This document shows positions 7,008 through 55,907 of a stretch of 64,000 nucleotides of DNA, piece by piece (within the stretch, counting starts at the first letter, position 1; the number at the start of each line of letters is the position of its first letter). Source of the stretch: Verrucomicrobiia bacterium (lineage in GTDB: Bacteria > Verrucomicrobiota > Verrucomicrobiia > Limisphaerales > CAIMTB01); contig JAHCBA010000005.1 in NCBI GenBank assembly GCA_019634625.1, positions 136,950 through 200,949 on the forward strand, in the 5' to 3' direction. The notes under the pieces are model-generated. The model was given only the letters and a program-made list of their open reading frames with translations, was not told the origin of the DNA and did not search any database. The position numbers and the translations under genes were made by a program.

Positions 7008-8717
7008 ATGGCTGAGCCGAAGAAGAAGAACCCCGCCGTTCCCCCGCCCGGCGAACCCAACCCGGAGGAGGCTCCCTTCGCGCCGCCGCCGGCCATGATG
7101 GACCTCCTCTCCCGCGAGGAACTTGACCGCCTCTCCACCCTCCAGATCCTCGACCTCATCGCCGGCAAACTGCCCCCCCGCCATTCCGCCCTCCTCGACC
7201 TGGCCTACCTCCGCGACCGCGTCGTCGGCCTCGAGGAAACCAACGACCAGGCCCGCCAGGTCATCGAGAAGTACGACGAGGCCCTCGACAAACTCCGCTC
7301 CCCCGCCCTCCGAGTCGGCACCTTCCTCGCCGCCCTCGAACCCGACCGCGCCCATGTCTGCCTCGGCGGCGCCGACTACATCTGCCGCGTCGATCCCCAA
7401 CTCGCGCTTTCCAGTCTCCAGATCGGACAGCGCGTCCTCTGCAACGAAGCCTTCGCCGTCGTCCAGGGCCTCGGCTTCGACCGCGGCGGCCCCCTCGTCC
7501 GCATCGATGAAGCCCTCTCCGACGGCCGCCTCCGCATCGGCACCGAGGCCGGTACCGCCCCCGTCGTCGTCCTTCGCTCCGCCCTGCTCGCCAAGGAAAA
7601 ACTCAAGCCCGGGCTGGAAGTCCGTCTCGATGCCAATCAACGCGTCGCCCTCGAAGTCCTCGGCGTCGGCAAACGCATCGACCGCTCCCTCGACCGCGTC
7701 ACACCCATCCCCTGGTCCGCCATCGGCGGCCAGGACGAAGCGGTCCAGGCCATCCGCGACACCATCGAACTCCCCTTCCTCCACCGCGACCTCTTCCGCC
7801 GCTTCCAGCACGCCGTCCCCAAGGGCTTCCTCCTCCATGGCCCCCCCGGCTGCGGCAAAACCCTCCTCGGCAAGGCCACCGCCTGGAACCTCCGCCAGCA
7901 GATCCTCGACGCCACCGGGGTCGAACACCCCGAGTTCTTCCTCCACATCAAGGGACCCGAGGTCCTCAATATGTGGGTCGGCGAATCCGAACGGCAGGTC
8001 CGCGACCTCTTCGCCCAATGCCGCGAACGCGCCTCCGAAGGCCACCTCGCCTTCCTCTTCATCGACGAGGCCGAAAGCATCCTCGGCGTCCGGCGCGGCG
8101 GTCGCGTCCACAGCATCCTCTCCACCCTCGTCCCCATGTTCTGCACGGAGATGGACGGCCTCGAACCGCTCTCCAATGTGGTCATCATCCTCGCCTCCAA
8201 CCGCGCCGACCTCATCGACCCCGCCATCCTCCGCCCCGGCCGCATTGACCGGAAAATCCGCGTCCGCCGCCCCGACAAGGACGGCGCCCGGCGGATCTAC
8301 GGCATCTACCTCACCGATTCGCTGCCCCTGGCCGAGCCCTCCGACACCCTGGCCGCCGCCATCGCCGACGCCCATTACGCCCGCCATCCCGACAACGAAT
8401 TCCTCGAAGTCACCTTCCGCAGCGGCCGCCGTGATGTCCTCACCCGCGGCGACGTCGCCAGCGGCGCCATCATCGCCGCCGTCGTCGAACGCGCCAAAAG
8501 CCTCGCCATCAAACGTGCCATCGCCTCCAGCACCGCCGGCGAACTCACCCGCGACGACCTCCTCGCCGCCCTCCGCCTCGAACACGCGGAAAACGACCTC
8601 TTCCCTTCCAGCGACCTGACCGAGGACTGGCTCAAACTCACGGACTTCGACCCCGAAAACGTCGTCCGCCTCGGCCCCATCCGGCCCCGTCGCGAGGAAC
8701 GGAGCGCCGTCGTGTGA
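7008..8717 (+). CDS. mpa: Proteasome-associated AAA+ ATPase (Mpa/ARC type)
   Basis: N-terminal coiled coil (LRDRVVGLEETNDQARQVIEKYDEALDKL), tandem OB-like region, Walker A GPPGCGKT, Walker B LFIDEAE, and a pore-loop-like MWVGESE. It is the first gene of the proteasome operon. Its stop overlaps the next start (GTGA). Confidence 0.9.
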   Translation: MAEPKKKNPAVPPPGEPNPEEAPFAPPPAMMDLLSREELDRLSTLQILDLIAGKLPPRHSALLDLAYLRDRVVGLEETNDQARQVIEKYDEALDKLRSPALRVGTFLAALEPDRAHVCLGGADYICRVDPQLALSSLQIGQRVLCNEAFAVVQGLGFDRGGPLVRIDEALSDGRLRIGTEAGTAPVVVLRSALLAKEKLKPGLEVRLDANQRVALEVLGVGKRIDRSLDRVTPIPWSAIGGQDEAVQAIRDTIELPFLHRDLFRRFQHAVPKGFLLHGPPGCGKTLLGKATAWNLRQQILDATGVEHPEFFLHIKGPEVLNMWVGESERQVRDLFAQCRERASEGHLAFLFIDEAESILGVRRGGRVHSILSTLVPMFCTEMDGLEPLSNVVIILASNRADLIDPAILRPGRIDRKIRVRRPDKDGARRIYGIYLTDSLPLAEPSDTLAAAIADAHYARHPDNEFLEVTFRSGRRDVLTRGDVASGAIIAAVVERAKSLAIKRAIASSTAGELTRDDLLAALRLEHAENDLFPSSDLTEDWLKLTDFDPENVVRLGPIRPRREERSAVV

Positions 8718-10240
8718 TCCAGCCCGCCCCGATCCTTTTCGGACTCGAAACCGAGTTCGGCATCGCCCGCGGCGACCACCCCGACCTCGACGTGGTCGCC
8801 GAGTCCATTGCCCTCGTCCGCAGTGCCGCCGAACCCGGCGTCCTGATGCGCTGGGATTACGCCTCCGAAAATCCCCACCGGGACATGCGCGGCTTCGACG
8901 TCGCCCAGCTCCGCCAGGACGACGACGAGGCCCGTTACTTTGCCCAGGACGCCCGGCGCGAACTCAGCTTCGCCGAGATCAAGAGCGATTTCGTCTTCGC
9001 CAACGGCGCCCGCTTCTACAACGACCACGCCCACCCGGAATACTGCACCCCGGAATGCGCCCGCCTCTCCGACCTCGTCCTCCACGACCGCGCCGGGGAA
9101 CGCATCGTCATGGCCTGCGCCGCCGCCCTCTCCCGCCAGCGCGGCGAAACCGTCCGCCTCTACAAGAACAACACCGACTTCGCCGGCCACAGCTACGGTT
9201 GCCACGAAAACTACCTCATCCCCCGCGCCCTCGACTGGAACATTCTCGCGACCGCCATCCAGGCCTTCCTGGTCACCCGCCAGATCTTCGCCGGAGCCGG
9301 CAAGTTTGCCTTCGAGGAGGAGGACCGCCTGGTCGGGCACGGATTCCAGATCTCCCAGCGCAGCGACTTCTTCAGCGAACTGCAAAGCGTGGACACCATG
9401 CAGCGGCGCCCCATCGTCAATACCCGCGACGAACCCCACGCCGACCCACGCTACTGGCGCCGCTTCCACGTCATCCTCGGCGACGCCAACATGTCCCCCT
9501 TCGCCACCTGGCTGAAGGTCGGCACCACCGCCCTCACCCTCGAGGCGATCGTCCGCGAACCCGCCCACCCCTGGCCAGCCCTCGCCGATCCCCTCGCCGC
9601 CCTCCGCACCATCTCCGCCGACCCGCACTGGCGCTGGGAAATCCGCTGCACCGACCGCTCCCCCGCCACCGCCATCTCCGTCCAGCGCGACTACCTCGAT
9701 GCCGTCCGCCAAACCTGTGACCTGTCCGACCCCGACCGTGCCGCCCTGGTGACCGCCTGGGCCGGGGTCCTCGATGACCTCGAATCCGACCCCGCCCGAT
9801 GCCGGGACCGCCTCGACTGGGTTGCCAAACATGCCCTCATCCGCGAATTCCAGGCGGCCCAGCAGATCCGTGACGACGATCCCTGGCTGCTCAGCCTTGA
9901 CCTCGAGTACCACCGCCTCGACACCGCCGAGGGCCTCTACTTCGCCCTCGAGGACTCCGGCGCCATGCGACGTGTCCCCCCGCCCGCCGATGTCGAACGG
10001 GCCATCCATTCCCCCCCCGACAACACCCGCGCCGCCGTGCGCGGCCTGTGCATCGCCCGCTTCGCCCCCTTCGTCCTCTCCGCCCAGTGGGACCATGTCA
10101 CCCTCCAGACCCGGCGTGGCCCCCTGCGCATCGACCTGACCGATCTCTTCACCCCGGAACGTCTCGAATCCCTCCTTGCCGCCCTGCACGCCGCCGCGAC
10201 ACCGGACGACTTGCGCTTTGCCCCTTCCGACGGAAACTAA
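8714..10240 (+). CDS. dop: Pup-ligase/deamidase family protein, paralog 1 (Dop-like)
   Basis: GLETEFG N-terminal motif, NGARFYNDHAHPEYCTPE, YGCHENYL and NTRDEPHAD. The N-terminal segment RWDYASENPHRDMRGFD resembles the M. tuberculosis Dop segment RWDYEVESPLRDARGFD (from memory). Its position between mpa and the modifier gene is as in actinobacteria. The family call is strong. The Dop versus PafA split is tentative. Confidence 0.8.
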   Translation: MIQPAPILFGLETEFGIARGDHPDLDVVAESIALVRSAAEPGVLMRWDYASENPHRDMRGFDVAQLRQDDDEARYFAQDARRELSFAEIKSDFVFANGARFYNDHAHPEYCTPECARLSDLVLHDRAGERIVMACAAALSRQRGETVRLYKNNTDFAGHSYGCHENYLIPRALDWNILATAIQAFLVTRQIFAGAGKFAFEEEDRLVGHGFQISQRSDFFSELQSVDTMQRRPIVNTRDEPHADPRYWRRFHVILGDANMSPFATWLKVGTTALTLEAIVREPAHPWPALADPLAALRTISADPHWRWEIRCTDRSPATAISVQRDYLDAVRQTCDLSDPDRAALVTAWAGVLDDLESDPARCRDRLDWVAKHALIREFQAAQQIRDDDPWLLSLDLEYHRLDTAEGLYFALEDSGAMRRVPPPADVERAIHSPPDNTRAAVRGLCIARFAPFVLSAQWDHVTLQTRRGPLRIDLTDLFTPERLESLLAALHAAATPDDLRFAPSDGN

Positions 10241-10260
10241 CCGCCAATCTCTCCCCGCTT

Positions 10261-10434
10261 ATGCCCGAGCAGACTCAAAAGACTCGCCCTCCCATCCCGC
10301 GCCCGTCCGGCGGAGGCGGTGAAGGACCGAAAGCCCCCGACATCGAGAAGCCCAATACCGAGGAACTCCTCAAACGCATGCGCCGCGTCGATCCCGATCA
10401 GGCGCGCCGCTACCGCCAGCGCACCGGCGAGTAA
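10261..10434 (+). CDS. ubact: Pup/UBact-like small protein modifier (57 aa, C-terminal Glu)
   Basis: ATG at 10261 inside track ORF 10048..10434. Sequence: MPEQTQKTRPPIPRPSGGGGEGPKAPDIEKPNTEELLKRMRRVDPDQARRYRQRTGE. It is small and disordered-looking, has a basic helical C-terminal half and ends in ...RTGE immediately before the stop. It sits between the Dop-like gene and prcB, exactly where pup sits in actinobacteria. Confidence 0.8.
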   Translation: MPEQTQKTRPPIPRPSGGGGEGPKAPDIEKPNTEELLKRMRRVDPDQARRYRQRTGE

Positions 10435-10458
10435 CCTCGCCCACCCCTGCTAAACTCT

Positions 10459-11238
10459 GTGGGAGACTCCCTACCCCCTCCGCTGGCGGGCGATTTCTTC
10501 GCCCTCCTGGCCCGTCACCACCTCCAGAACCCCGCGCCGGACGCCTCGGCCTCGCTGCCCCCCACCCAGATCCAGGCCACCACGGTCTTCGCCTTCCATT
10601 TCGCCGGGGGCGTCCTGATGGCCGGCGACCGGCGCGCCACCGCCGGCCACCTCATCGTCACCGAGCAGGTGGACAAAATCCTCGAACTGGACGCCTCATC
10701 CCTCCTCGCCATCGCCGGCGTTCCGGCCACCGCCTTCGAGATCGCGCGTACCCTCAAGACGTCGTTCGAATACTACCGGCGCAGCCAGTTGCAGTCCCTC
10801 AGCCTTCCCGCCCGGCTCCGCGCCCTCTCCCGCGCCCTCCGCGATAACCTCCCCCTCACCCTTCAGGGGGTCGGTGTCGTCGCCCCCCTCTTCGCCGGCC
10901 TCGACACCACCTCTTCACCACCCCGGCCCCAGATCTATTTCTATGATCCCCTCGGAGCGCAGTTCCAGGCCGCCGCCTTCGCCGCCTCCGGCTCGGGTGC
11001 CATCACCATCCGCAGTCTCCTCAGTTTTCAGGAACGGTTCGGGTCCCCCACGCCCTCCCGCCTCCCGCGCCGTGAAGCCGTCCAGCTCGCCCTCCGCGTC
11101 CTCACCGTCGCCGCGGAATTCGATACCGCCACCGGCGGCATCCAGCCCGATGCCTCCCGCTTCGCCACCCTCCGCATCCTCGGTCCGGACGGCATCTCGA
11201 CGGTGGACGATGCGGAACAACGTGACGCCCTCGGTTGA
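10459..11238 (+). CDS. prcB: 20S proteasome beta subunit
   Basis: GTG start and a 40-aa propeptide. The mature N-terminus is then TTVFAFHFAGGVLMAGDRRATAGHLIVTEQVDK. This places Thr1, Asp17 and Lys33 exactly as in M. tuberculosis PrcB ([21 protein letters not shown]...K33). Confidence 0.9.
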   Translation: MGDSLPPPLAGDFFALLARHHLQNPAPDASASLPPTQIQATTVFAFHFAGGVLMAGDRRATAGHLIVTEQVDKILELDASSLLAIAGVPATAFEIARTLKTSFEYYRRSQLQSLSLPARLRALSRALRDNLPLTLQGVGVVAPLFAGLDTTSSPPRPQIYFYDPLGAQFQAAAFAASGSGAITIRSLLSFQERFGSPTPSRLPRREAVQLALRVLTVAAEFDTATGGIQPDASRFATLRILGPDGISTVDDAEQRDALG

Positions 11239-11259
11239 CGTCCCACCCGATCCCGGACC

Positions 11260-11997
11260 ATGACTGAAGAACCCTACAGGTGGATCGAGGCGATCGGGAA
11301 CCGCCGCGAATACGTGGAAACCCAGCTCCGGGGCGGTTCGCCCGTCTTCGCCGCCAGCCTCGACGACGGGATCCTGCTCCTCGGCGTCGGCACCGGACAT
11401 TCCAAGGTCTTCGAAATCTTCGACCGCCACGCCCTCGCCGGTCTCGGGCATCCCACCGACCTCGAACGGGTCCGCCAGACGTTGATCGATGCCGCCCACC
11501 TGGAAGCCTTCACCCGCGCCTCGGCGGATGTCTCCCTCCGGCGCCTGGTCAGCTTCGGCCTCGGACCCCAGCTCAAAACCGCCTTCGAACAGCTCTTCAG
11601 CCCGCCCTTCCTCGTCCGACTCCTCCTCGCCGAAGTGGGCCAGCGCCCAACCAACGATCTCCTCGTCCGGCTCGATTTCGACGGTTCCTTCGAACTCCGG
11701 CCCGGCGGCGTGGCGATCGCAGCCGACAGCCCCTCCGGAACCGCCGCAGCCGGGGACTGGCTTGCCCCGCGCATCGATTCGTCCACATCCCTGCCCGATG
11801 CGTCCCTCTGGCTCCTCGAGGCCTGGCATCGCCTGACCGCCTCCGAACCGTTCCCGGCCGACCTCGACCGTCCCCGAACCGCGTGGACCCTCCCCGCCGG
11901 CCGTCAGGTCGAAGCCGCCCTGCTCCGCCGCACCGCGCCCGGCGAAGCCCGCTACCAGCCCCTGGACCCGGCCCAACTCGTGCCCCCCCCCGCATGA
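11260..11997 (+). CDS. prcA: 20S proteasome alpha subunit
   Basis: 245 aa Ntn-fold-like protein without an N-terminal Thr nucleophile, immediately after prcB. It has an ATGA overlap with the following gene. Confidence 0.8.
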   Translation: MTEEPYRWIEAIGNRREYVETQLRGGSPVFAASLDDGILLLGVGTGHSKVFEIFDRHALAGLGHPTDLERVRQTLIDAAHLEAFTRASADVSLRRLVSFGLGPQLKTAFEQLFSPPFLVRLLLAEVGQRPTNDLLVRLDFDGSFELRPGGVAIAADSPSGTAAAGDWLAPRIDSSTSLPDASLWLLEAWHRLTASEPFPADLDRPRTAWTLPAGRQVEAALLRRTAPGEARYQPLDPAQLVPPPA

Positions 11998-13394
11998 CCC
12001 GCGTCGTCGGTCTCGAAACCGAATACGGCTGCCTCTCCGACGACCCCGCCGGCCCGGCGGCAACCGTCGGACTCGTCCGCGGCTGGCTGTTCGAACGTCA
12101 GCGTTACGGACTGCCCGATGTCTTCCAGCGCGACTGGGATGAACCGCCCGGCAACGGCGGATTCCTGTTCAACGGCGGACGCGCCTACGTGGACATGGGG
12201 CACCTCGAATACTGCACCCCCGAGTGTCTCCAGCTCCGGGACCTCATCCTCTACGACCGCGCCGGCGATCTCCTCCTCGACGAAGCCCTCTCCTCCCTCG
12301 GCCTCACCGCACGGGCCGGCTTCATCCGCAACAACATCGACCACTACTCGGGGGCCACCTTCGGCTGCCACGAAAACTATCTCGTCCGCCGCAGCGCCCC
12401 CCTCACCGAGCGCAACGTCCTCTCCGTCCTCGCCTTCCTCACCCTTCGCGTCCTCTATTCGGGCGCCGGCCGGGTCGGCTCCTCCCTCGGCGCCGAGAAC
12501 CGCGGCGATCACCGCCGGCCCGGCGCCAATCCTCATTTCCAGATCAGTCAGCGCGCCGACTACATCAACAACGAGCTGTTCGAGTGGGTCCAGTTCAACC
12601 GCGCCATCATCAATACCCGCGACGAACCCCTCGCCGATCCCCGCCGCTTCCGCCGCCTCCACCTCCTCCACGGCGACACCAGCGTCCTCCCCTGCACCCT
12701 CGCCCTCAAAATCGGCACCACGGCGCTCGTCCTCGATCTCCTCGAAATCGACCACCTGCCCCATCTCTCCCTCGCCGACTCGGTCCAGACTTTCCGCATC
12801 CTGTCCCACCAGACCGACGGCCCCTGGGAGGTCACGCTGGCCGAAGGCGGGTCCGCCGATGCCATCGAGATCCTCGCCCGTTATCAGGCCGCCGCGTCGG
12901 CCGAATTCCGCGGTCGCGATGCCGAAACCGATGCCATCCTTGCCCTCTGGGCCGAAACCCTGGATGCCCTCTCCAAGGACCCCCAACGCCTGATCGGCCG
13001 GGTGGACTGGATCACCAAGCAATGGCTCCTCTCCCAGTTCGTGGAACGGGAGGGCGTGTCCTGGGACGATCCCTGGCTCCGCTCCCAGGACCTCGAATTC
13101 CACCACGCCTCCGTCACCCGTTCCCTCGGCCACGCCCTCGACCGTTCGCCCGATCCCTGGGCCATCCGTCAGGGGGACGCCACCAAGGCCCTCGACACCC
13201 CCCCGGCCGACACCCGCGCCCATGCCCGTTCCCAGCTCATGCGTCGCATCTCCCAGCGAGAGGGTCGCTACTTCGTGGACTGGGAGATCGTGGACATCGA
13301 GGGCTTCGAAACGCTGCACCTCCTCGATCCCTTCTCCCCCCAGCCGCCCGAGCCCAAGCCTCTCTCGGAACCGCCCGATTCAAAGCCCTCCTGA
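11994..13394 (+). CDS. pafA: Pup-ligase/deamidase family protein, paralog 2 (PafA-like by position and length)
   Basis: In the frame of track ORF 11280..13394, starting MTRVVGLETEYGCL (ATG at 11994). Motifs: GGRAYVDMGHLEYCTPE, FGCHENYL, NTRDEPLAD and LHLLHGDTS. The family call is strong. Ligase versus deamidase is not resolved. Confidence 0.8.
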   Translation: MTRVVGLETEYGCLSDDPAGPAATVGLVRGWLFERQRYGLPDVFQRDWDEPPGNGGFLFNGGRAYVDMGHLEYCTPECLQLRDLILYDRAGDLLLDEALSSLGLTARAGFIRNNIDHYSGATFGCHENYLVRRSAPLTERNVLSVLAFLTLRVLYSGAGRVGSSLGAENRGDHRRPGANPHFQISQRADYINNELFEWVQFNRAIINTRDEPLADPRRFRRLHLLHGDTSVLPCTLALKIGTTALVLDLLEIDHLPHLSLADSVQTFRILSHQTDGPWEVTLAEGGSADAIEILARYQAAASAEFRGRDAETDAILALWAETLDALSKDPQRLIGRVDWITKQWLLSQFVEREGVSWDDPWLRSQDLEFHHASVTRSLGHALDRSPDPWAIRQGDATKALDTPPADTRAHARSQLMRRISQREGRYFVDWEIVDIEGFETLHLLDPFSPQPPEPKPLSEPPDSKPS

Positions 13395-15202: not shown

Positions 15203-15335
15203 ATCCATGCAGCAGGCGGGAGGTGCGAACTCCGCAACGCATCTCCCCGGAGGGCCGGGTTCCACGAGGCCGCAACGGTGTGGAGCGTTGGGTCGTGGAC
15301 TCGCGGAGCTCGTCCCTCCGGTTCTCCCCCGGACT
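15203..15335 (-). mobile_element. MITE-like repeat, copy 1 (reverse orientation, degenerate termini)
   Basis: The core GGAGGTGCGAACTCCGC...GGAGGGCCGGGTTCCACGAGGCCGCAACGGTGTGGAGCGTTGGGTCGTGGACTCGCGGAGCTCGTCCCTCCGG is the reverse complement of the core of the copies at 20850, 36092 and 38839. Confidence 0.7.
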
Positions 15336-15337
15336 CC

Positions 15338-17770
15338 CTACCGTCGCCCCGCCAGCCACCGCCGGATGGCCAGGCTCTGCGAGTGCTCCGGATCCAGCTC
15401 GATGACTCTCAGGTAATGCGCCCGCGCCCTTCCGCCATTCCCCAACCGCTGCGCATACAGGTTCCCCAAAAGCAGATGCGCCGCCACATGGTCGGGATCC
15501 GTGGTCACGATCCGTTCCGCCTCGATCGCCGCGTCGGTGGGGTACCCGGCGCGCTCGAGGGCCAGCGCAAAGGTCAGTCGTGCCGACAGGGAATCCGGGT
15601 CCAACGACAAGGCCCACTCGCTGGCATCCAGCGATCGCGACCAGTCCCCCGTCTGGAGATGAACCGTCGCCAGATTGCGGTAGGCCTCGTACGCCGCCGG
15701 ATCCAGCCGGATCACTTCCGTGTAGTGCGTCACGGCCGACTCCATCCGTCCTCGGCGGTGCTCCTGAATGCCAAGCAGCATGACCGGCCGAGCCGCTGCC
15801 CGGTCACCCGTCGCGGGCCGGTTCGGACGCTGGTACACGTACCTCGGTATCTCCCGCACGGCCCCGGGCATCGGCTCCACCCCCTCCAACCGACCCGGCA
15901 TAACGTCGGCCGGGCCCGGCGACGAGGGCACGCGCACCACCCGGATGCTCGGCTCGGTCAGCAAGGGGATGCCCATCCCGTCGACAACGGGTGCCGATCG
16001 ATCCACTTCCGCCTGGGTTGCAGCCACCTCCCTGTCCGATGCCCGTTCCGCGCCGTCCTCGGAACGGAACCACGTCGTCGGATTCACCCAACGCCACCGT
16101 CCCGCCTCGCTCGCCTCCCTGTCCTCACCTGCGGACGGCCCAGGTTCCACGCTTCGCCCATCGGAAGCGAACCACTGCATCGGATTGGCCCGACTCCAGA
16201 ACCGCCGCCGTTCGGCTGCGTCGGCATCCGGTCGGGCGATTCCAACCTCCCGCGTTGCCTCGTCGCCAGTCGCCGTCCCCTCCGAAGACACCCCCGGCAG
16301 CACAGGGGCCCAGGCTTCGTCCCGCGTCTCCCGCGCAAACCCAGCGGGCACCGGCACCTCCACCACCTGCAGGGGTTCCGGCGCGGGCCCTTCCACGGCC
16401 AGAGTCACCGGCGGGACCGGTGTCGGGGGCGGCGTCGGCTCGGGCGGAAGACGCAACCCCACCTGCGGCAGCACGCGCAGGGGCGGCTCGGACATCCGAT
16501 CTTCCACCGCTTCCGTCACGGCAACGGGTGGCGGCTCCACGGCCGCCACAAGCCGGTCGGGAACAGCGGGCGGCGGCAACGGCTCCTCCACCACGTTCAC
16601 CTCGGGCACCTCGACCGCGGCAGTCGCAGGGGCAGGGGCAGGATCCGGTTCCACGGGATCCGGATCCACCCGCGGCCCGGGCGCCGTGGAGCGGGAATCG
16701 ATGCCTGCGGACGCCCTGGCGTCAACGGCGCGGGTCGGGGCTGACGGCGGCAGCTCAGAGGGAATGGAAGGGGAAGGCGCCGTGGGCGGCGGCGGTTCCA
16801 GCCGAACGGGGGGAGGGGCATCAATCGTCCCGCCATGTTGCGAGGACTCCGGTGGTAGGCTGGTCCCAGCCCTGGTCGCGGCCAGTTGAACGGGCGCAGC
16901 GGTAGGTTCCTGGGTCGGTTCCTCCGGCACCGCGGGGGTCGAGGAAGGGCCGGCCGTCCCTGTAAGGGGCGTTGCCCCGGCCACGGGAAGTGCGGCGGCC
17001 CCAGGGACGTCCGGCACTGCGGGCGGCGTCTCAAGGTGGCGAAGGATGGCGGCGATTCCCAGGGAACGGGCGGCCTCCGGTCGCAGCGCGGTGTAACGCC
17101 GGTAGGCCTCGACGGCCTGAGGTCGGGCGCCCAACTGCTGGGCCGCCACGGCCAGGTTCAACCACGCGGGAGCGAATCCCGGCTCCCGCTGCGCCGCCTC
17201 GCTGAAACACTGCCAGGCCTCCCGGGCCCGCCGCTGCTGCTGCAGGGCGATTCCCAGCCCGTTCAACGCCTCGACGTCCCCGGCGCGCAACCGCAGCGCC
17301 GTGCCGAAACTTCGTTCCGCCTGGCCCCACTCTCGGACCCGCAGCAATGCCTGCCCATGCGCCCGCCATCCCTCCGCCGACTCGGGTTCGATCGCGATAT
17401 ACGAGCGGAAGGACTCCGCCGCCTCATCCGGGCGTCCCTGTTCCAACCAGAGATGCCCCAGATTGAAATGGGCGGCCCCAAGGCGGGCGTCGAGGCGGAT
17501 GGCGTGCTGATAGGCCCGCAATGCCTCCCCCGGCTGGCGGGCGGCGTGCTGGGCCAATCCAAGATGATTCCAGGCCTGCGCGTTCCCCGGCAGGAACTCC
17601 ACAGCGGTCTGCAGCCGGCGCACCGCGTCCCGCGGACGCCCCTTCTGCAGAAGCCGCTCCCCATCCAGCAAGGCGCGGGGCCCCGGCGGCGTGCACGCCG
17701 TCAGCACCAGCGCCAGGCCCACCGCCACCATCGCGGCACCGCGCCGAATTGGGATTCTTGTCGTCAACAT
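15338..17770 (-). CDS. TPR-repeat lipoprotein with a central proline-rich low-complexity spacer
   Basis: This is the 3' two-thirds of track ORF 15338..18877. The start was set at MLTTRIPIRRGAAMVAVGLALVLTAC (lipobox-like; alternative ATG at 17788). It has an N-terminal TPR block, a roughly 330-aa Pro/Ala/Glu-rich region and a C-terminal TPR block. Confidence 0.75.
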   Translation of the reverse strand: MLTTRIPIRRGAAMVAVGLALVLTACTPPGPRALLDGERLLQKGRPRDAVRRLQTAVEFLPGNAQAWNHLGLAQHAARQPGEALRAYQHAIRLDARLGAAHFNLGHLWLEQGRPDEAAESFRSYIAIEPESAEGWRAHGQALLRVREWGQAERSFGTALRLRAGDVEALNGLGIALQQQRRAREAWQCFSEAAQREPGFAPAWLNLAVAAQQLGARPQAVEAYRRYTALRPEAARSLGIAAILRHLETPPAVPDVPGAAALPVAGATPLTGTAGPSSTPAVPEEPTQEPTAAPVQLAATRAGTSLPPESSQHGGTIDAPPPVRLEPPPPTAPSPSIPSELPPSAPTRAVDARASAGIDSRSTAPGPRVDPDPVEPDPAPAPATAAVEVPEVNVVEEPLPPPAVPDRLVAAVEPPPVAVTEAVEDRMSEPPLRVLPQVGLRLPPEPTPPPTPVPPVTLAVEGPAPEPLQVVEVPVPAGFARETRDEAWAPVLPGVSSEGTATGDEATREVGIARPDADAAERRRFWSRANPMQWFASDGRSVEPGPSAGEDREASEAGRWRWVNPTTWFRSEDGAERASDREVAATQAEVDRSAPVVDGMGIPLLTEPSIRVVRVPSSPGPADVMPGRLEGVEPMPGAVREIPRYVYQRPNRPATGDRAAARPVMLLGIQEHRRGRMESAVTHYTEVIRLDPAAYEAYRNLATVHLQTGDWSRSLDASEWALSLDPDSLSARLTFALALERAGYPTDAAIEAERIVTTDPDHVAAHLLLGNLYAQRLGNGGRARAHYLRVIELDPEHSQSLAIRRWLAGRR

Positions 17771-20489: not shown

Positions 20490-20652
20490 GCTTTCGAGCC
20501 CTCGGAGCCTCTCTGAAAATTCGAAGGGGCCCGGTTTCGAAGAAATGGCCGGATGCCGAGGCGCGGAGGAGGAGGATCGAGCATACCCGACAGCGGGCTG
20601 TGACCCAGGAGCGACGATACAAGCCGGCCAAATCCCATCCCTTACAACAATA

Positions 20653-20758
20653 GGTCAGGCTCACTAATGTTGACCCTACGGCAACGAGACTACGGCAATA
20701 AGTCAGACCCCTATTTGTTGACGCCACTGGCTATATAGTCAGGCTCACAGTTGTTGAC
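20653..20758 (+). repeat. Array of three 21-bp dyad motifs (GTCAGGC-N7-TGTTGAC) in an AT-rich island
   Basis: Units at 20653-20675 (GGTCAGGCTCACTAATGTTGACC), 20702-20722 (GTCAGACCCCTATTTGTTGAC) and 20738-20758 (GTCAGGCTCACAGTTGTTGAC). Each is preceded by an A/T-rich patch (aata, aataa, atata). The array lies upstream of lpxA, which is on the minus strand. Confidence 0.7.
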
Positions 20759-20849
20759 GCCTTGCTCCTGCCCGAAACCCACAAGAATTTCCGTGCGGCC
20801 ATTGGCGAAAGGTTCGCCGAGGATTCCGGCGCCGATCAGGTGCATCCCG

Positions 20850-20998
20850 GAGTTGTGGGTGAGGAGCCAGCGAATCGGAAGGGCGAGCTCTGCGAGTCCT
20901 CAACACAACGCTCCACTCCGTTGCAGCCTCGTGGAACTCGGCCCTCCGAAGCGCCGCTTGGCGTAGTTCGTACCTCCACCCACAACTCCGGGATGCAC
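20850..20998 (+). mobile_element. MITE-like repeat, copy 2 (intact)
   Basis: TIRs are GTGCATCCCGGAGTTGTGGGTG ... CACCCACAACTCCGGGATGCAC. It is flanked by the 10-bp direct repeat GGCGCCGATC (20838-20847 and 21000-21009). Confidence 0.8.
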
Positions 20999-21149
20999 GG
21001 GCGCCGATCCCTCAATGGGCTTTTCTCTTGAGTCGCCCCTCCCCCAATTCCTACGCTGCCCCCCGTCTTTCGCCGTCATGGAACGCGATGCGCGCCTTTT
21101 CCAGGGCTACTCCTCCGATTGGTCGCCGCGCCTGTTCTGAACGCCTTCC

Positions 21150-32592: not shown

Positions 32593-32774
32593 TTTCAGAC
32601 AGGCTCCCTGGCGGTGCACCCCGGGTGGTGGGTGAGGAGGCAGAGAATCGGAGGGACGGGCTCCGCGAGTCCCCAATCCATGGCACCCCTCCCCTGGGGC
32701 CTCATGGAACCCGGCCCTCCGGGGCCACGCTTCGCGAGGCTCGCACCTCTCTCCCCACAGCTCCTGAAGGCATC
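32593..32774 (+). mobile_element. MITE-like repeat, copy 3 (diverged, with the 5' extension TTTCAGACAGGCTC)
   Basis: GTGCACCCCGGGTGGTGGGTGAGGAGGCAGAGAATCGGAGGGACGGGCTCCGCGAGTCC...GGAACCCGGCCCTCCGG...CGCACCTCTCTCCCCACAGCTCC. The extension TTTCAGACAGGCTC recurs in reverse at the partial copy at 55838-55907. Confidence 0.7.
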
Positions 32775-32813
32775 GGTTTCCGACGCCGGCCCAATTTCCG
32801 GCTTGCCCTGAAG

Positions 32814-32831
32814 CGACTACCCGCGTAGTCG
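32814..32831. promoter_or_regulatory. Candidate BlaI-type operator dyad
   Basis: CGACTAC-CCGC-GTAGTCG is a perfect 7-bp inverted repeat. It lies 22 bp upstream of the blaI-like start codon. Confidence 0.35.
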
Positions 32832-32852
32832 GGTGGGAACACCACAGTCGTC

Positions 32853-33224
32853 ATGAAGAAGGTTCCGCGCATTTCAGAAACCGAGTGGCAGATCATGAAG
32901 ATCGTCTGGTCCCGTGGCCCGTGCACGGCCAACGAGATCCTCGAGGCGTTGAATTCCCGTGAGCCCTGGCATCCCAAGACGGCGCGGACGTTGATTGGCC
33001 GGCTGGTGAAGAAGCGGGCACTCACCTACAAGGAGGACGGCCGGGCCTACATTTACCGGGCGGGAATCAGCGAGGAGGATGCGGTGGCCCACTACAGCCG
33101 GTCGTTCCTGGAACGGGTGTTCGACGGGGCCCTGGCGCCCATGGTCGCCCACTTCGTTCAGCATGAGCGGCTCTCCCCCACCGATCTGAAGGAGCTGCGG
33201 GATGTGTTGACCGGCAGGGACTAG
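32853..33224 (+). CDS. blaI: BlaI/MecI/CopY-family transcriptional repressor
   Basis: 123 aa winged-helix protein: ISETEWQIMKIVWSRGPCTANEILEAL...WHPKTARTLIGRLVKKRAL. Confidence 0.85.
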   Translation: MKKVPRISETEWQIMKIVWSRGPCTANEILEALNSREPWHPKTARTLIGRLVKKRALTYKEDGRAYIYRAGISEEDAVAHYSRSFLERVFDGALAPMVAHFVQHERLSPTDLKELRDVLTGRD

Positions 33225-33227
33225 GCC

Positions 33228-34880
33228 ATGCAAGGGCTCGCCGAAGCGGCGGGCTGGCTGTTCGGCTGGCTCCTGCGCAACTCCGCCCATGCCGCCATCC
33301 TGGCGGTCGTGGTGTGGGGGTTGGAGCGGACCGTGGGGAGGAGCCTGCCGCCGCGCTGGCGATACGCCATGTGGCTGGTGGTGGTGGCAAGACTGCTGCT
33401 GCCTGCCGCGCCGGAAAGCTCGTTCAGCCTCTTCAACCTGGTGGACCTCGCCCCGGCGAATGTGGCCGGCGTGGCATTGCAGGTGCTGGGCCTGCCCGCG
33501 CCCCTGGTGGTCTCCCACGAAGCGCTCCCCGATCCCCTCGTCGATACTCCCGGGTGGTTCGTGTGGGCGCTGGCCCTGTGGTTCCCGGGAGCGCTCATCC
33601 TGGCCTTTCTCGTCTGGCGGGATCATCGTCGGCTCGTCCACGCCTTGCGCGCCACCTCGCCCATCCTCGATGCGGAGGTGCTGGACCTGCTCCGCCAGAG
33701 CAAGGCGGTGATGGCGGTGCGCGAACGGGTGACGGTCGTCGAGACTTCCGGAATCACCTCCCCCGCCATCTCGGGATGCTGGCGGCCGCGCCTGCTCCTG
33801 CCCAATGGTCTCCTCAGCCGGCTCACCCCGGACGAGATCCGGTTTCTCTTCCTCCATGAACTCGCTCACGTGAAACGCGCGGACCTGGCGCTGAACTGGG
33901 TCCTGGCGGCCATCCAGATCCTCCACTGGTTCAACCCTGTCGTCTGGCTCGCCCTCCGGCGCCTGCTCGCCGTCCGGGAGGAAGTCTGCGACAGCATGGT
34001 CCTCCGGTCGTGCTTTCCGGGCGCCTCCCGGGAGTACGGGCTCACTCTCCTGCGCCTGCTGGAGGAGTGTGCGCCGAAACGCCTCGTCCCCGCCCTGGCA
34101 GGCGTCCTCGATGACGTGAGGACCCTCCGGAAACGCATCGTCTGCATCCGCGACTTTGGCGTCCGCGATCCGCACCCGGCGGTGCCTGCCGGATTGACTC
34201 TGGCGGTCGCCCTGGCCGGGCTGACCGAGCGCACCGAGAACGGGGCGGATTGGGTGCGGCGCCACCAGTCGGCCGCGGCGGAATGGACCATCCCCAAGGC
34301 ACCCCACAACGAGCCTGCCCCAACGGCTCCTGCAAGTGTCCCGCTGGCAACACCCGTCCCTCCGGCGCCCCGGCCAGCTTCGGAGGCCCCTCCCCCTGAA
34401 GACACGCCCCGGCGAGCCGATCTGTCGGCGCGATTTCTGGGAACGCTTTCGATGGTGATGCAGCAAACCCTGGCCGACCTGCTCCCAGACGCATCGGGAT
34501 CGACCCGGTCTGCCGGGTCCGCCGAACCCCCGACGTCACCCAACGCCACCGCGGCAGTCGCTTCACCCGGAGCCTCCGCGGCCAGTGCCGGCCCGCCCCA
34601 GCATCCCCACCCGGCTCCAATCCCTCCCCCGCTCGCCGCACCCCGACTGGTCCAGACGCCTGCCTCCGGCGGGGCCGGTTCGGCGCCGCGCCCAGGCACC
34701 CGGCCTTACCCTCTCCCGCCCGTTGACCAGCGGGGCGATGTGATCCGCCCGCCCAGGCCAAGCCGCGAAGCCACCTCCGGTGTGGGAGGTACTGTGCGAA
34801 GCTTCGAAGGCATCATGACTCCCGGCATCCGCTCGCCCGGAACGCCGACGCGCTGGGGGCGCATCCCCGAAGACGGCTGA
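33228..34880 (+). CDS. M56-family (BlaR1-like) membrane metallopeptidase with a Pro/Ala-rich C-terminal region
   Basis: TM helices followed by the HEXXH motif in FLFLHELAHVKRADL. The last roughly 200 aa are Pro/Ala/Ser-rich low complexity, with no recognisable penicillin-binding sensor domain. Confidence 0.8.
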   Translation: MQGLAEAAGWLFGWLLRNSAHAAILAVVVWGLERTVGRSLPPRWRYAMWLVVVARLLLPAAPESSFSLFNLVDLAPANVAGVALQVLGLPAPLVVSHEALPDPLVDTPGWFVWALALWFPGALILAFLVWRDHRRLVHALRATSPILDAEVLDLLRQSKAVMAVRERVTVVETSGITSPAISGCWRPRLLLPNGLLSRLTPDEIRFLFLHELAHVKRADLALNWVLAAIQILHWFNPVVWLALRRLLAVREEVCDSMVLRSCFPGASREYGLTLLRLLEECAPKRLVPALAGVLDDVRTLRKRIVCIRDFGVRDPHPAVPAGLTLAVALAGLTERTENGADWVRRHQSAAAEWTIPKAPHNEPAPTAPASVPLATPVPPAPRPASEAPPPEDTPRRADLSARFLGTLSMVMQQTLADLLPDASGSTRSAGSAEPPTSPNATAAVASPGASAASAGPPQHPHPAPIPPPLAAPRLVQTPASGGAGSAPRPGTRPYPLPPVDQRGDVIRPPRPSREATSGVGGTVRSFEGIMTPGIRSPGTPTRWGRIPEDG

Positions 34881-34887
34881 TCGCCTG

Positions 34888-35310
34888 TCATCGCGCCCAG
34901 GACACGCGGTCCGCACGGAGGCGGTCGAGGAGCAGTGCGTCGGCCGCTGGAAACGCGTGGGCGTCGAGGCCATCGGGACCAATCCAGCGCAGGGCCGCGC
35001 ATCCCAGCGGTTGCGGCTCCCCTTCGAGCACCCGGGCCCGATAGAAGCGCAGTCTCACCTGCTTCCCCGGATACTCGAACTCGATCTCCTGATACAGCCC
35101 GTCCACGCCCGCCTCGATCCCCAACTCTTCGTGGAGTTCGCGTCGGAGACAGGCTTCCCAGGGCTCGCCCGGTTCCCTCTTGCCACCCGGAAACTCCCAA
35201 AGCCCGGCAAGGTGCGAACCGGGCGGGCGTTGGGTGATGAGAAGGCGCCCCTCCCGGAAAATCAGCCCGGCAGCCACCTCGATGGGAATCCGGGCCGTGG
35301 GTGACGACAC
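34888..35310 (-). CDS. NUDIX hydrolase, MutT-like (8-oxo-dGTP diphosphatase type)
   Basis: 140 aa. Nudix box GGKREPGEPWEACLRRELHEELGI. Confidence 0.8.
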   Translation of the reverse strand: MSSPTARIPIEVAAGLIFREGRLLITQRPPGSHLAGLWEFPGGKREPGEPWEACLRRELHEELGIEAGVDGLYQEIEFEYPGKQVRLRFYRARVLEGEPQPLGCAALRWIGPDGLDAHAFPAADALLLDRLRADRVSWAR

Positions 35311-35311
35311 G

Positions 35312-36025
35312 TCAGGGCACCGAATCGACCGGCGCGCCGTTGCCGGCCAGTTGGGGATGCGACCGGATCAACGACTCGCGCTGCTGCATGGCCTGCTGGG
35401 CGAAGGCGCCGGCGTCGCGGTCACGCAGAACTTCATCGTAGAGGCGGAGGGCGATCTCCGGTTGCCCCCGGCTCGCGTGAATGCGGGCCAGGGCAAGCCG
35501 GGCCTGTCCGGCCACGCTGTCACCCGCGTACTCCACGATGACCGCCTGATAACGGGCCACGGCGTCATCGATCCGATCCAGGGCATCGAGCGAGGCAGCG
35601 ACACCGTAGGCGGCCTGGGCGGCGAGCGATCCCGAACGTTGGCGTTCGCCCGCCTTCTCGAATTCGGAAAGGGCTTCCGAGTACTGACCCGCCTCGAAAA
35701 ACGCCCCCGCCGCCAGCAGTTGCGCCCGTCGCCCGGCCATCGAGGAGGGATACTGGTCGGCCACCCTCAGATAATCGGCCGCTCTGGGGGCCGTCTCCGA
35801 AACGCCGGGGCGGGCGCGCAGCGCGAGCAGGGCGGCATTGGCCTTCGACTCCCGGTCCGCCCGCACGTTCCGCCAGACCAGCAGCACGGAAACCCCCAGG
35901 ATGATCACCACCAGGGCCGCGATCAGCCGGGCCTGATGGATCTCGAGCCAGGCCATCACCTGCATCATCCGATCCTGCTCCGGGGGGGGAGCCACGGGCG
36001 TCGGTTGGGTCGCTGCCGAAGACAT
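35312..36025 (-). CDS. Single-pass membrane TPR protein (YfgM-like architecture)
   Basis: Lies in ORF 35312..36103. The start was moved to MSSAATQPT (ATG at 36025). It has a TM helix (LIAALVVIILGVSVLLVW) followed by TPR-like helices. Confidence 0.65.
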   Translation of the reverse strand: MSSAATQPTPVAPPPEQDRMMQVMAWLEIHQARLIAALVVIILGVSVLLVWRNVRADRESKANAALLALRARPGVSETAPRAADYLRVADQYPSSMAGRRAQLLAAGAFFEAGQYSEALSEFEKAGERQRSGSLAAQAAYGVAASLDALDRIDDAVARYQAVIVEYAGDSVAGQARLALARIHASRGQPEIALRLYDEVLRDRDAGAFAQQAMQQRESLIRSHPQLAGNGAPVDSVP

Positions 36026-36091
36026 AGAGCCGGCAAGAGTCTCGCCGGGGAAACAAAACTCAAGAGCGAATTCACGAACGGGCTCGCGCCG

Positions 36092-36240
36092 GTGCATCCC
36101 CAAGTTGTCGGTACCGAGCCAGCGAACCGGAGGGACGAGCTCCGCGAGTCCTCAACCCAACGCTCCACACCGTTGCGGCCTCGTGGAACTCGGCCCTCCG
36201 AAGCGCCGCTTGGCGGAGTTCGCACCTCTACCGACAACTC
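36092..36240 (+). mobile_element. MITE-like repeat, copy 4 (intact)
   Basis: GTGCATCCCCAAGTTGTCGGTACCGAG ... CTCTACCGACAACTCCGGGATGCAC. It is flanked by the 9-bp direct repeat GGCTCGCGC (36081-36089 and 36242-36250). Confidence 0.8.
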
Positions 36241-36303
36241 CGGGATGCACTGGCTCGCGCGCTCGCGCGAGCCCGGAGATCCGTTGTCAAATGGGATCGG
36301 GAC

Positions 36304-38756: not shown

Positions 38757-38838
38757 AATCGAAACTTTGTGACGTCCAAGTTACATATCGGTTGCTTGAT
38801 GGCAACGCCCAAGTCACGGATTCGTGACAATCAATCCG

Positions 38839-38997
38839 GTGCATCCCGGAGTTGTGGGTGAGGAGGCAGCGAATCGGAGGGACAAGCTCAGCGAGTCCTC
38901 CATCCATTGCACCACTCCGCTGCGGCCTCGTGGAACTCGGTCCTCCGAAACGACGCTTCGCGAAATTCGCACCTCTCCCCACAACTTTGGGATGCAC
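38839..38997 (+). mobile_element. MITE-like repeat, copy 5 (intact)
   Basis: GTGCATCCCGGAGTTGTGGGTGAGGAGG ... CCTCTCCCCACAACTTTGGGATGCAC. The direct repeat GTGACAATC lies on both sides (38824-38832 and 39000-39008). Confidence 0.8.
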
Positions 38998-39215
38998 GGG
39001 TGACAATCCCGAATCCTGAATTCTGAGGGAGCGTTTCGGCTTGAGGGCTGCCGAGGTCGTTTGGGGGGGGCTCAAGATTCAAATTGCCGATGCGAGGAAG
39101 GTCAGACGGGAGAGTTCAGGCGGGTTGGGGTTGGAAGGTTGGGAGAGGCCATTAAGACGGGAATGGCCTTGGGAGGTCGGTCAGCCGGCAAGCCCTATCC
39201 TATATCCTATAGTGC

Positions 39216-39337
39216 GCCCGGCACCTAGATGTTGACGCGCCGCGACGAGGCCACCCGCCGCGGTCACAAGGGAATTCTGACGAGTACCGGGCCGAAGCAC
39301 GCCGTCATCGTCAGCAGTCATCAATATAACGCCTGAC
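39216..39337. repeat. Dyad-motif copies in duplication unit 1
   Basis: 39216-39236 GCCCGGCACCTAGATGTTGAC (plus orientation). 39317-39337 GTCATCAATATAACGCCTGAC, the reverse complement of GTCAGGCGTTATATTGATGAC. Confidence 0.6.
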
Positions 39338-39506
39338 CGATTATATTCATTGTCAATTGTCAAAATCACGATGGACTGGCTTGCGGGCTGATTTCTGGGC
39401 CGATGCGACAGATCGGGCAGGGGGGCGCCACGTCTCGGTTGGCCCGGGTCGCCGCTGGCCTCGACCTCCCCCCAAAATTCCTGGGCCGGGGAACGCAGCC
39501 CGGTCA

Positions 39507-39826
39507 CGATCAGATCAATGCCTCGGGTCGCAGCACCAGCTTGCCGGCCAAGCCGCCCTTCTTCAGGACCGTGCTCTCCTCCTGGAGGCGGTGAGCGGCG
39601 GCAGTTTCCGACAGGGGGAGAATCCGGTCAATCCGCGGGCGGTACTGACCACCGGTCAGCCAGCGGTTCAAATCCTGCGCCGCGTTGCGCTGCTCGTCGG
39701 GTGAGGCGGCGAACATGACGAAGCCGTGGAGGGAACAGCCCTTGACGTAGAAGGGTCCCACGGGGAACGGGGGGCGGGCCTCCCGGCCGGCCATGAGCAC
39801 GGGCGGCCAGCGCGGATTGTGAGCCT
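39507..39826 (-). pseudogene. Displaced 3' fragment of the quinone oxidoreductase gene (last roughly 96 codons)
   Basis: Track ORF 39510..39800 is identical to the Qor C-terminus except for one D/E change. It has no N-terminal two-thirds. There is a 10-bp deletion relative to the full copy just upstream of the homology end. Confidence 0.75.
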
Positions 39827-39832
39827 GGCATG

Positions 39833-40020
39833 TGGATGTTGACGCGCCGCGACAAGGCCACCCACCGCGGGCACAAGGGAATTCTGACGAGAACAGGACT
39901 GAAGCGCGCCGTCATCGTCAGCAGTCAGCCATATAGCGCCTGACCTTTTATTGGCATCGAGTCATCCATAGAAAGCCTGACCTATTATCTTTTTATCGAG
40001 TCATCAATAAAACGCCTGAC
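39833..40020. repeat. Dyad-motif copies in duplication unit 2, including three tandem iterons (37-39-bp period)
   Basis: 39833-39853 GCCTGGCATGTGGATGTTGAC (plus). In reverse orientation: 39924-39944 GTCAGCCATATAGCGCCTGAC, 39961-39981 GTCATCCATAGAAAGCCTGAC and 40000-40020 GTCATCAATAAAACGCCTGAC. Each is followed by a TATTAT-like patch. Confidence 0.7.
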
Positions 40021-40187
40021 GTATTATTTATCGAATCGCAGCGGACTGGCCAGCGGGGCTGGTTTCGGGCCCGATGCGGCAGAACTGGCAGGGGGGGCGC
40101 CAGATCTCGTTTGACCCGGGTCGCCGCTGAGCTCCGCGGGTGGGCTAGCCCCCCCCATTCCAGGGCAGGGAACGCCACCCGGTCAGA

Positions 40188-41192
40188 TCAGATTAGTGCC
40201 TCGGGTCGCAGCACCAGCTTCCCGGCCAAGCCGCCCTTCTTCAGGACCGTGCTCTCCTCCTGGAGGCGGTGAGCGGCGGCAGTCTCCGACAGGGGGAGAA
40301 TCCGGTCAATCCGCGGGCGGTACTGACCACCGGTCAGCCAGCGGTTCAAATCCTGCGCCGCGTTGCGCTGCTCGTCGGGCGAGGCGGCGAACATGACGAA
40401 GCCGTGGAGGGAACAGCCCTTGACGTAGAAGGGTCCCACGGGGAACGGGGGGCGGGCATCCCGGCCTGCCATGAGCACGTACCGTCCGCGGGCGGCCAGC
40501 GCGGCAACCGCCAGGTCGAAGTCCGGTTCGCGCGTGGTTTCCCACCAGACATTGACCCCGGCGGGGGCGACCTTCTTGAGTTCGGCAGCCACATCCTGCG
40601 TGCGGTAGTTGAAGACCGCGTCGGCGCCGAGCTGGCGGCAGAGCTCGACCTTGGCATCGCTCCCGGCCGAGCAAAAGACCCTGGCACCCAATGCTTTGGC
40701 GATCTGGAGTACGGCTGTGCCCACACCGCCGCTCCCACCCTGAATGAAAATGGACTCGCCCTTCTGCAGCCTGGCCTCCCGCACCAGGCCCAGATGGGCG
40801 GTGATGCCCACCAGGGCACCTGCAGCGGCCAGATCGTCGCTCACCCCCGCAGGCGTCGGATAGGCCCAGACCTCGTCCACGGCGACCTGCTCCGAAAAAG
40901 TCCCATGCCGCCCGAGGAGACCCTGGTTGCTGCCCCAAACGCGGTCGCCCACCCGGAACTGTTTCACGTCGAGACCCACGGCTTCGACCACGCCGGCGAA
41001 GTCGCACCCGACGACAAACGGGAGCGGGATCTCCATGGGCACCAGCCCGGACCGCAAATAGGTGTCGATCGGGTTCACGGCGACCGCATGGACGCGGACC
41101 CGAAGCTGATTGGCCTTGATGGCGGGGAGGGGCAGTTCCCCGTACTGGATTACCTCCGGGGGTCCGGTCCGTTCGAGGTAGGCGGCTTTCAC
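40188..41192 (-). CDS. qor: NADPH:quinone oxidoreductase (zinc-type ADH/MDR superfamily)
   Basis: Lies in ORF 40188..41285. The start was set at the GTG at 41192 (VKAAYLERTGPPEVIQYGELPLP). Rossmann motif GGSGGVGTAVLQIAKALGA. Confidence 0.85.
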   Translation of the reverse strand: MKAAYLERTGPPEVIQYGELPLPAIKANQLRVRVHAVAVNPIDTYLRSGLVPMEIPLPFVVGCDFAGVVEAVGLDVKQFRVGDRVWGSNQGLLGRHGTFSEQVAVDEVWAYPTPAGVSDDLAAAGALVGITAHLGLVREARLQKGESIFIQGGSGGVGTAVLQIAKALGARVFCSAGSDAKVELCRQLGADAVFNYRTQDVAAELKKVAPAGVNVWWETTREPDFDLAVAALAARGRYVLMAGRDARPPFPVGPFYVKGCSLHGFVMFAASPDEQRNAAQDLNRWLTGGQYRPRIDRILPLSETAAAHRLQEESTVLKKGGLAGKLVLRPEALI

Positions 41193-41429
41193 GCCGCCAC
41201 GTTGGCGCAGGCCCGGTTCGGGAGCAACGCCGGAGCCACCTCGCAACGTGGGTTCGACCGAACCCGGTCGCTGGACGGATGGCACCGACGGAAATTGTGT
41301 GCATATGCACGCTGTTTAGGATGATTTCAACGGCGGCTCCGAAGGGTTGCGCTTCCATGGGGTGTCGCCCTCGCGAACCGGGACGTCCGGGGCTTGGAAT
41401 GTGGGCCGGATCAGGGCTTGATCTCGCCC

Positions 41430-55827: not shown

Positions 55828-55837
55828 CTTCCATCCG

Positions 55838-55907
55838 GTGAATCCTGGAGTTGTGGGTCGGGGCGCGAACTTCGTGAAGCGTTGCTCGCCTGAGAGCCTG
55901 TCTGAAA
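55838..55907 (-). mobile_element. MITE-like repeat, copy 6 (internally deleted remnant, reverse orientation)
   Basis: GTGAATCCTGGAGTTGTGGGTCGGGGCGCGAACTTCGTGAAGCG... matches the reverse complement of the right arm. It then joins directly to CCTGTCTGAAA, the reverse complement of the TTTCAGACAGG extension seen at 32593. Confidence 0.55.

Follow-up and report, generated by a model that had tools for sequence, protein, structure and literature searches.

The repeats of about 163 bp that recur in the 64,000 nucleotides analysed here (the window) are very probably MITEs of an ISKra4-like insertion sequence (IS) that are mobilised in trans, and their interior would be a captured palindromic repeat of Verrucomicrobiota. 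The elements encode nothing, and they would be cut and pasted or copied by an ISKra4-like (p-MULT4) DDE transposase supplied in trans, with each insertion duplicating 9 bp of the target. According to this model, the terminal inverted repeats (TIRs) alone derive from the IS, and a pre-existing palindromic repeat (the core) came between two IS ends and was then amplified with them as one long hairpin. The capture may have occurred by insertion of the core into a minimal MITE, or by IS ends assembling around the core. As a kind of MITE these elements are ordinary, and their composite build is slightly unusual.

Copies of the repeat family in the window

There are six loci of the repeat family in the window, and all of them were recovered by a repeat search and an nhmmer profile. 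The family is real, as had been predicted, in that the 22-mer GTGCATCCCGGAGTTGTGGGTG has five matches with at most three mismatches in the window and none in 100 shuffles. Three of the loci hold intact copies of about 163 bp; of the remaining three, one has diverged, another lacks recognisable ends and the last is a remnant (Table 1). The unit length in the window is 159-163 bp. The original prediction had placed six copies at these loci, of which those given as 20850-20998 and 36092-36240 were shifted or short by about 10 nt. Its 22-bp TIRs are indeed present, but the true TIR is 24 nt long with a terminal C, and both 22-nt TIRs are perfect in the copy at 20838-21000 (the 20840 copy) only; the other copies carry 0-3 mismatches.

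Flanking direct repeats likewise exist as claimed, with a length of 9 bp rather than 9-10 bp and with some changes of position. The repeat GGCGCCGATC is found at 20828-20837 and 21000-21009, not at 20838, and the right copy of GGCTCGCGC does not begin at 36242. An offset of 1-2 nt from the TIR had been proposed for all three flanked copies, but an AATC duplication (an AATC-AATC slip) has moved the left copy of the third repeat, GTGACAATC, to a distance of 6 nt from the TIR.

Table 1. Positions of the repeat copies and of their parts in the window
Feature	Position	Strand	Description
Intact MITE copy	20838-21000	+	between divergent lpxA-like and GST/PhoH genes
24-nt TIRs of the 20838-21000 copy	20840-20861; 20977-20998		terminal dinucleotide + GTGCATCCCGGAGTTGTGGGTG at 20840-20861; reverse complement at 20977-20998
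Left 9-bp target-site duplication of the 20838-21000 copy	20829-20837		GCGCCGATC
Right 9-bp target-site duplication of the 20838-21000 copy	21001-21009		GCGCCGATC
Nested inner palindromic repeat (core) of the 20838-21000 copy	20876-20948	+	left arm 20876-20900, loop 23 nt, right arm 20924-20948
Intact MITE copy	36090-36252	+	between divergent TPR_21 and oxidoreductase genes
TIRs of the 36090-36252 copy	36092-36113; 36229-36250		both GTCGGTA type, as in the IS
Flanking direct repeat of the 36090-36252 copy	36081-36089; 36252-36260		GGCTCGCGC
Intact MITE copy	38837-38999	+	downstream of Tll0287-like gene
TIRs of the 38837-38999 copy	38839-38860; 38976-38997
Direct repeat of the 38837-38999 copy	38824-38832; 39000-39008		GTGACAATC
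Diverged MITE copy	32612-32775	+	degenerate TIRs; between ketohexokinase and blaI-like genes
Copy without recognisable TIRs	15218-15342	-	between TPR and OEP-like genes
Remnant, right third of MITE with its TIR	55835-55907	-	between convergent amidase and dinB-like genes

Two of the six window copies lack a duplication. No target duplication was found for the diverged 32612-32775 copy, and neither recognisable TIRs nor a duplication were found for the 15218-15342 copy. Over 105 nt the interior of the latter nevertheless shares 90% identity with the 36092 copy, and simple MITE decay does not explain this combination of a well-preserved interior with unrecognisable TIRs. A stretch of 21 nt (TTTCAGACAGGCTCTCAGGCG / TTTCAGACAGGCTCYCWGGCG) is joined to the 55835 remnant (55887-55907) and is also present immediately to the left of the 32612 copy (32593-32613). 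This stretch represents either part of a longer variant element or flanking DNA that was copied along.

The window copies differ from one another by about 16%, and thus the amplification is not recent. Three copies nevertheless retain intact 9-mers, which suggests transposition from masters that had already diverged.

Element ends and target-site duplication

A metagenome scan with the degenerate TIR GTGCATCCCNNAGTTGTSGGKR yielded at least 120 loci, and these permit the ends of the element to be defined. A direct repeat of at least 9 bp flanks 16 of 44 elements, compared with 1.2% in a flank-permutation null. The repeats lie exactly 2 nt outside GTGCATCC on both sides, and therefore the true ends read C-N-GTGCATCC.., giving a TIR of 24 nt with the consensus C-N-GTGCATCCC-NN-AGTTGT-S-GGTR. 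Among 74 ends, 70 start with C. When the offset is fixed at 2 nt on either side, the flanking 9-mers are identical in 9 of 37 elements and differ by no more than two mismatches in 22 of 37, a set that includes both the full-length IS at locus L205 and the 20840 window copy. Thus the consistent flanking duplications that the original prediction anticipated are present.

For prokaryotic Mutator-like families, ISKra4 among them, Guerillot et al. 2014 (PMC3942029) describe inverted repeats of 18-39 bp with a cytosine conserved at the terminus, as well as direct repeats of 8-9 bp. The hallmarks that were tested agree with this description, since the inverted repeat is 24 nt long, the terminal base is C and the direct repeats measure 9 bp. 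Promoter-proximal targeting has been described for some ISKra4-type members (PMC3942029); no positional signal of this kind was detected in 71 outward flanks.

The probable partner insertion sequence

There are at least seven full-length IS of 2188-2192 bp bounded by these TIRs among the metagenome loci, together with at least 35 other short elements of 85-267 bp that fall into several size classes. Many single TIR matches lie at contig ends among the metagenome matches listed, as expected for repeats. The TIR consensus of the IS is GTGCATCCC(G/C)(A/G)AGTTGT(C/G)GGT(G/A), and the window TIRs differ from it at 0-2 positions (20-22 of 22 match). IS with TIRs matching GTGCATCCCGGAGTTG, for which the original prediction had proposed a search, therefore do exist, and they carry an ISKra4-like transposase gene and a DruA-like ORF. 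The matching IS and the 9-bp duplications also support its proposal of target-site duplication by a transposase acting in trans. Catalysis would be due to the ISKra4-like transposase, and the partner IS may reside in the source genome.

The 2.19-kb IS encode a transposase of 414 amino acids and a DruA/DUF4338-like protein of 285-334 amino acids (PF14236). The best family for the transposase is NCBIfam ISKra4 (NF033572, E 4.6e-56), where its score of 190.7 bits lies below the curated cut-off of 205; it passes Pfam UPF0236 (37.8 vs 24.3). The nearest annotated plasmid relatives found by tblastn are named 'ISKra4 family transposase' and share about 27% identity over 99% of the length. More than 900 unnamed relatives are present in metagenomes, most of them by themselves on contigs of roughly 2.2 kb. 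Through its link to the MITEs, this abundant environmental ISKra4-like family acquires defined ends, a duplication of 9 bp and derivatives that are non-autonomous.

There is no transposase in the window, as had been stated from the sequence, and tblastn found no trace there of either IS protein. A full-length IS was found neither in the window nor in the 10 kb beyond it.

The DruA/DUF4338-like ORF occurs as an accessory gene of the ISKra4-like IS (L113 74-931; L164 1427-2431). A domain of the same kind is fused to an ISAs1-like transposase at L080 955-2322, within an IS that adjoins a decayed core-bearing element. The domain thus seems to be a recurrent transposon accessory. The DruA-like ORFs of L013 and L051 were considered as the same IS and rejected because they lack matching TIRs.

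The other MITE classes share only TIRs with the IS. A second class of 194 bp belonging to the same IS carries another long palindrome, which is also found without TIRs in a Verrucomicrobiae genome locus (L041) and partly in another (L052). The core-bearing 159-bp MITE family was not seen among the metagenome matches listed (at least 120 loci).

The inner palindromic core

The interior of the MITE contains an independent palindromic repeat of 65-100 nt in which two conserved arms of 25 nt enclose a variable loop. Its anatomy is CGGAGGGACGAGCTCCGCGAGTCCC, a loop of 8-107 nt and then GGGCCTCGTGGAACTCGGCCCTCCG; the remainder of the MITE interior is lineage-specific flank of about 45 nt. When genomes were scanned with a 23-nt pattern taken from the interior, 103 loci (129 matches) were recovered from 34 species-level MAGs; almost all of these carry a Verrucomicrobiota label, and one MAG alone accounts for at least 54 of the matches. 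In an nhmmer comparison only profile positions of about 35-115 recur in the 103 genome loci, without the window TIRs. The outer TIRs around the core are seen in the window only, as compared with these loci. Conservation of the arms is high. Mismatches at arm positions 8, 13 and 22 are fixed and little compensated, and the search pattern inflates the conservation of the right arm.

Cores in other MAGs sit within other outer arms, for example CCCATGAAC..GTTCATGGG. A solo right arm, GGCCTCGTGGAATCTGGCCCTCCG, is found at L226 6767-6848, about 3.2 kb past the right end of the window, inside a different inverted repeat, CCATGGGTC..GACCCATGG, that resembles the CCCATGAAC..GTTCATGGG arms around cores in those MAGs. 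The core also occurs elsewhere as solo arms and in tandem arrays, with a period of 107 at L020 and of about 90 at L030 and L099. Two short contigs with a Verrucomicrobiota core, L080 (JBGTMU010000229.1, labelled Longimicrobiales) and L088 (labelled Bifidobacteriaceae), belong to MAGs of unrelated phyla, and here mis-binning is likely rather than true occurrence.

The core is read in frame in several genes, all of them in other genomes and none in the window. Five kinase genes (Ser/Thr kinase-like) in ORFs of 949-1257 amino acids (L023, L035, L077, L093, L103) read through it as GGTS(S/A)ASP...GPRGTRPSE. In the hemL gene of L066 it forms a 26-amino-acid insert between residues 303 and 306 of PDB 2cfb_A, a GSAM structure. 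In-frame cores are also observed in long ORFs at L085, L095, L097, L034 and L043, and more than one reading frame and orientation is used. The recurrent pseudo-peptide (..PRGTRPSE..) that the original prediction dismissed as conservation at the nucleotide level is the translation of the right arm, and it is a nucleotide-level artefact as was proposed.

No target duplication was found for the core (k = 2-5), and its flanks show no complementarity beyond a T...A/G preference. Insertion of the core into the centre of pre-existing palindromes was also considered and rejected, since flank complementarity and folding energy equal those of permuted controls. All-against-all clustering of 3272 ORFs revealed no gene accompanying the core, whether RAYT or another, and no full-length IS that has core arms as its ends was found. 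Pfam assigned the ORFs lying between cores to IS4 transposases or housekeeping genes only.

An IS4-family IS, which encodes a 405-amino-acid transposase (DDE_Tnp_1 + DUF4372) and has ends ..CTCGTGTCCAG.., is inserted in the core left arm at L020 1678-6364, L084 3052-4414, L099 (both strands) and L030 262. The insertion site is the same 9-10-bp GAGCTCYGCG in both orientations, with duplications CGCGGAGCTC or AGCTCTGCG. Because insertion occurs at the same site at several separate loci, the IS appears to target the core specifically, which would provide a ready marker for the core.

Tentatively, and with slightly more doubt than conviction, we consider that the core could be an undescribed, self-propagating palindromic family of Verrucomicrobiota (Limisphaerales/Pedosphaera-like) that makes no target duplication, is tolerated in frame within essential genes, builds tandem arrays, serves as the dedicated target of an IS4-family IS and has repeatedly become cargo between ISKra4-type ends. 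MITEs of this IS family would then systematically be TIR pairs around host palindromes rather than deletion derivatives of the IS.

Genomic context and relatives

All six copies are intergenic on a rough GC3-based gene map, in agreement with the original prediction. Two copies lie in divergent spacers, two in co-directional spacers and two downstream of genes; convergent spacers are among those occupied. The genes beside the copies are unrelated (TPR protein, lpxA-like, GST/PhoH, ketohexokinase, blaI/blaR, oxidoreductase, Tll0287-like, amidase, dinB), and no gene theme is evident.

The ARC ATPase encoded in the window has 100% identity to a protein from a Verrucomicrobiae MAG, and the relatives of the host are Limisphaerales/Pedosphaera-like. 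In a close relative (L231), whose PhoH protein is 93% identical and whose flanks are 78-87% identical at the nucleotide level, the lpxA-GST spacer has 23 nt versus 522 nt in the window and the element is absent. Its OEP-TPR spacer has 126 nt versus 262 nt in the window, and no element was detected there. Since more than the element differs in these spacers, neither is a clean empty site; next to the MITE at 20840, L231 also lacks 333 nt. In more distant relatives no copy was found in about 21 kb around the proteasome genes, and where ARC identity is about 83% the synteny is lost at the compared site.

In short-read assemblies of the same organism, contigs begin and end within copies. One contig (L224) equals window positions 32629-36116, another (L232) spans copy 2 to copy 3, and contigs break inside the 32612-32775 copy. 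The MITEs break short-read assemblies of this lineage, and in annotation they yield spurious ORFs and 'conserved peptides'.

Several other features of the window can be noted. A complete Pup-proteasome cluster (ARC ATPase, two Pup-ligase family genes dop/pafA and proteasome subunits) is located at 7008-13394 and is kept in relatives L227 and L229. A sequence of about 28 nt (AATAGGTCAGGCTCAC-N-TTGTTGAC) occurs as three direct copies at 20649-20760, within the 333 nt left of the 20840 MITE that the close relative lacks, and a fourth copy is inverted near 39951 (39951-39986). These copies may represent another small repeat or serve as operator-like sites. At 39209-39951 and 39508-40485 there are direct repeats of 300 nt (96%) and 136 nt (86%), with a period of about 607-678 nt. 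The ORF at 39510-39911 is a fragment that corresponds to the C-terminal portion of the gene for zinc alcohol dehydrogenase at 40188-41285, and the arrangement is a partial tandem duplication.

Alternative explanations

On either strand the element folds into a single long hairpin (-94.5 and -98.1 kcal/mol, z ~ -7). The original prediction was correct on this point, but the self-complementary interior is a separate and much more widespread repeat nested in the MITE, and more than mere filler. Such very stable predicted hairpins, together with the fact that in both co-directional spacers the element is oriented as the genes, might indicate a structured non-coding RNA gene or a cis-regulatory RNA (a terminator or processing site) that is kept in multiple copies for a host function. 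We judge this very unlikely. Both strands fold equally well, the position relative to genes is inconsistent, promoter or terminator signals around the copies do not exceed chance, and the target duplications and matching IS account for the copies. There are no Rfam matches at gathering score in the window, and a permissive search of a copy gave only sub-threshold miRNA hairpin models. Among five window copies, the alifold covariation term is unfavourable (+5.3) with few compensatory pairs, and the mismatches in the arms are conserved rather than compensated. Thus the structured RNA that the original prediction named as a refuting alternative finds support neither in Rfam nor in covariation. 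It is extremely improbable that the copies are independent in situ deletion remnants of full-length IS that never transposed as short units. An IS losing its interior would also leave TIRs and duplications, but all copies share an interior of 115 nt without similarity to the IS interior, which independent deletions could not create.

Another possibility is that the inner palindrome is the unit that matters. It would then be a REP/REPIN-like or RPE-like repeat with its own mechanism (a RAYT-like enzyme or recombination), and the outer arms would be a lineage-specific extension of the hairpin rather than transposase substrates. The core alone is conserved across the 34 MAGs, it lies within other outer arms in other genomes, and the 15218 copy keeps the interior without TIRs; the lack of target duplication, the arrays and the in-frame insertion in genes point in the same direction. 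However, 20-22 of the 22 positions in the outer arms agree with the ends of a coding IS, and the 9-bp duplications occur at the exact offset of that IS. A mere extension of a hairpin would not produce such ends and duplications, and the neighbourhood of the cores, in the loci examined, yielded no RAYT-like or other recurrent gene. As an account of the 163-bp unit, this explanation is therefore improbable, although it probably holds for the core itself. For the whole unit, mobilisation as a MITE by the ISKra4-like IS is preferred.

Comparison with known systems

Bacterial MITEs that are mobilised in trans by DDE IS include the Correia/NEMIS elements of Neisseria and RUP of Streptococcus pneumoniae. 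Like these, the window element is short (about 160 bp), non-coding, intergenic, multi-copy and hairpin-forming, its TIRs match an autonomous IS, and its target duplication has a fixed length that fits that IS family. Unlike these, its partner is ISKra4-like (Mutator-like), and neither MITEs derived from ISKra4 nor this Verrucomicrobiota repeat turned up in the literature searched. A further difference is that it takes only TIRs from the IS and has an independently widespread palindromic repeat as its interior.

The partner IS resembles ISKra4 / p-MULT4 in its best family match, in inverted repeats within the range of 18-39 bp, in the terminal cytosine and in the 9-bp repeats (PMC3942029). Some members of that group carry an extra ORF of unknown function (PMC3942029), and the partner IS likewise has an accessory ORF. 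It differs from ISKra4 in that its transposase is only about 27% identical to annotated ones and below the NCBIfam cut-off, its accessory ORF is DruA/DUF4338-like, and promoter-proximal targeting was not seen.

REP, BIME and REPIN elements associate with RAYT transposases, and REPs are targets of IS1397 or IS621. The core shares with them two inverted arms of about 25 nt around a variable spacer, the lack of a target duplication, mosaic and tandem arrangements, and its role as target of a specific IS. In contrast to them, it has no GTAG-type 5' motif, its arms are not themselves conserved hairpins, and no RAYT gene was found adjoining the cores in 819 kb of loci.

The Rickettsia palindromic elements (RPE) are scattered palindromic repeats that are tolerated in frame in protein-coding genes. 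The core differs from them in phylum and sequence, in arms that are much more conserved than the loop, and in its tandem arrays and solo arms; no homology is claimed. Like RPE, the core is a scattered palindrome of about 70-100 nt with no identified transposase, and it lies in frame in kinases and hemL. If it is confirmed to be mobile in its own right, it would be the second clear case, after Rickettsia, of in-frame palindromic DNA in housekeeping genes.
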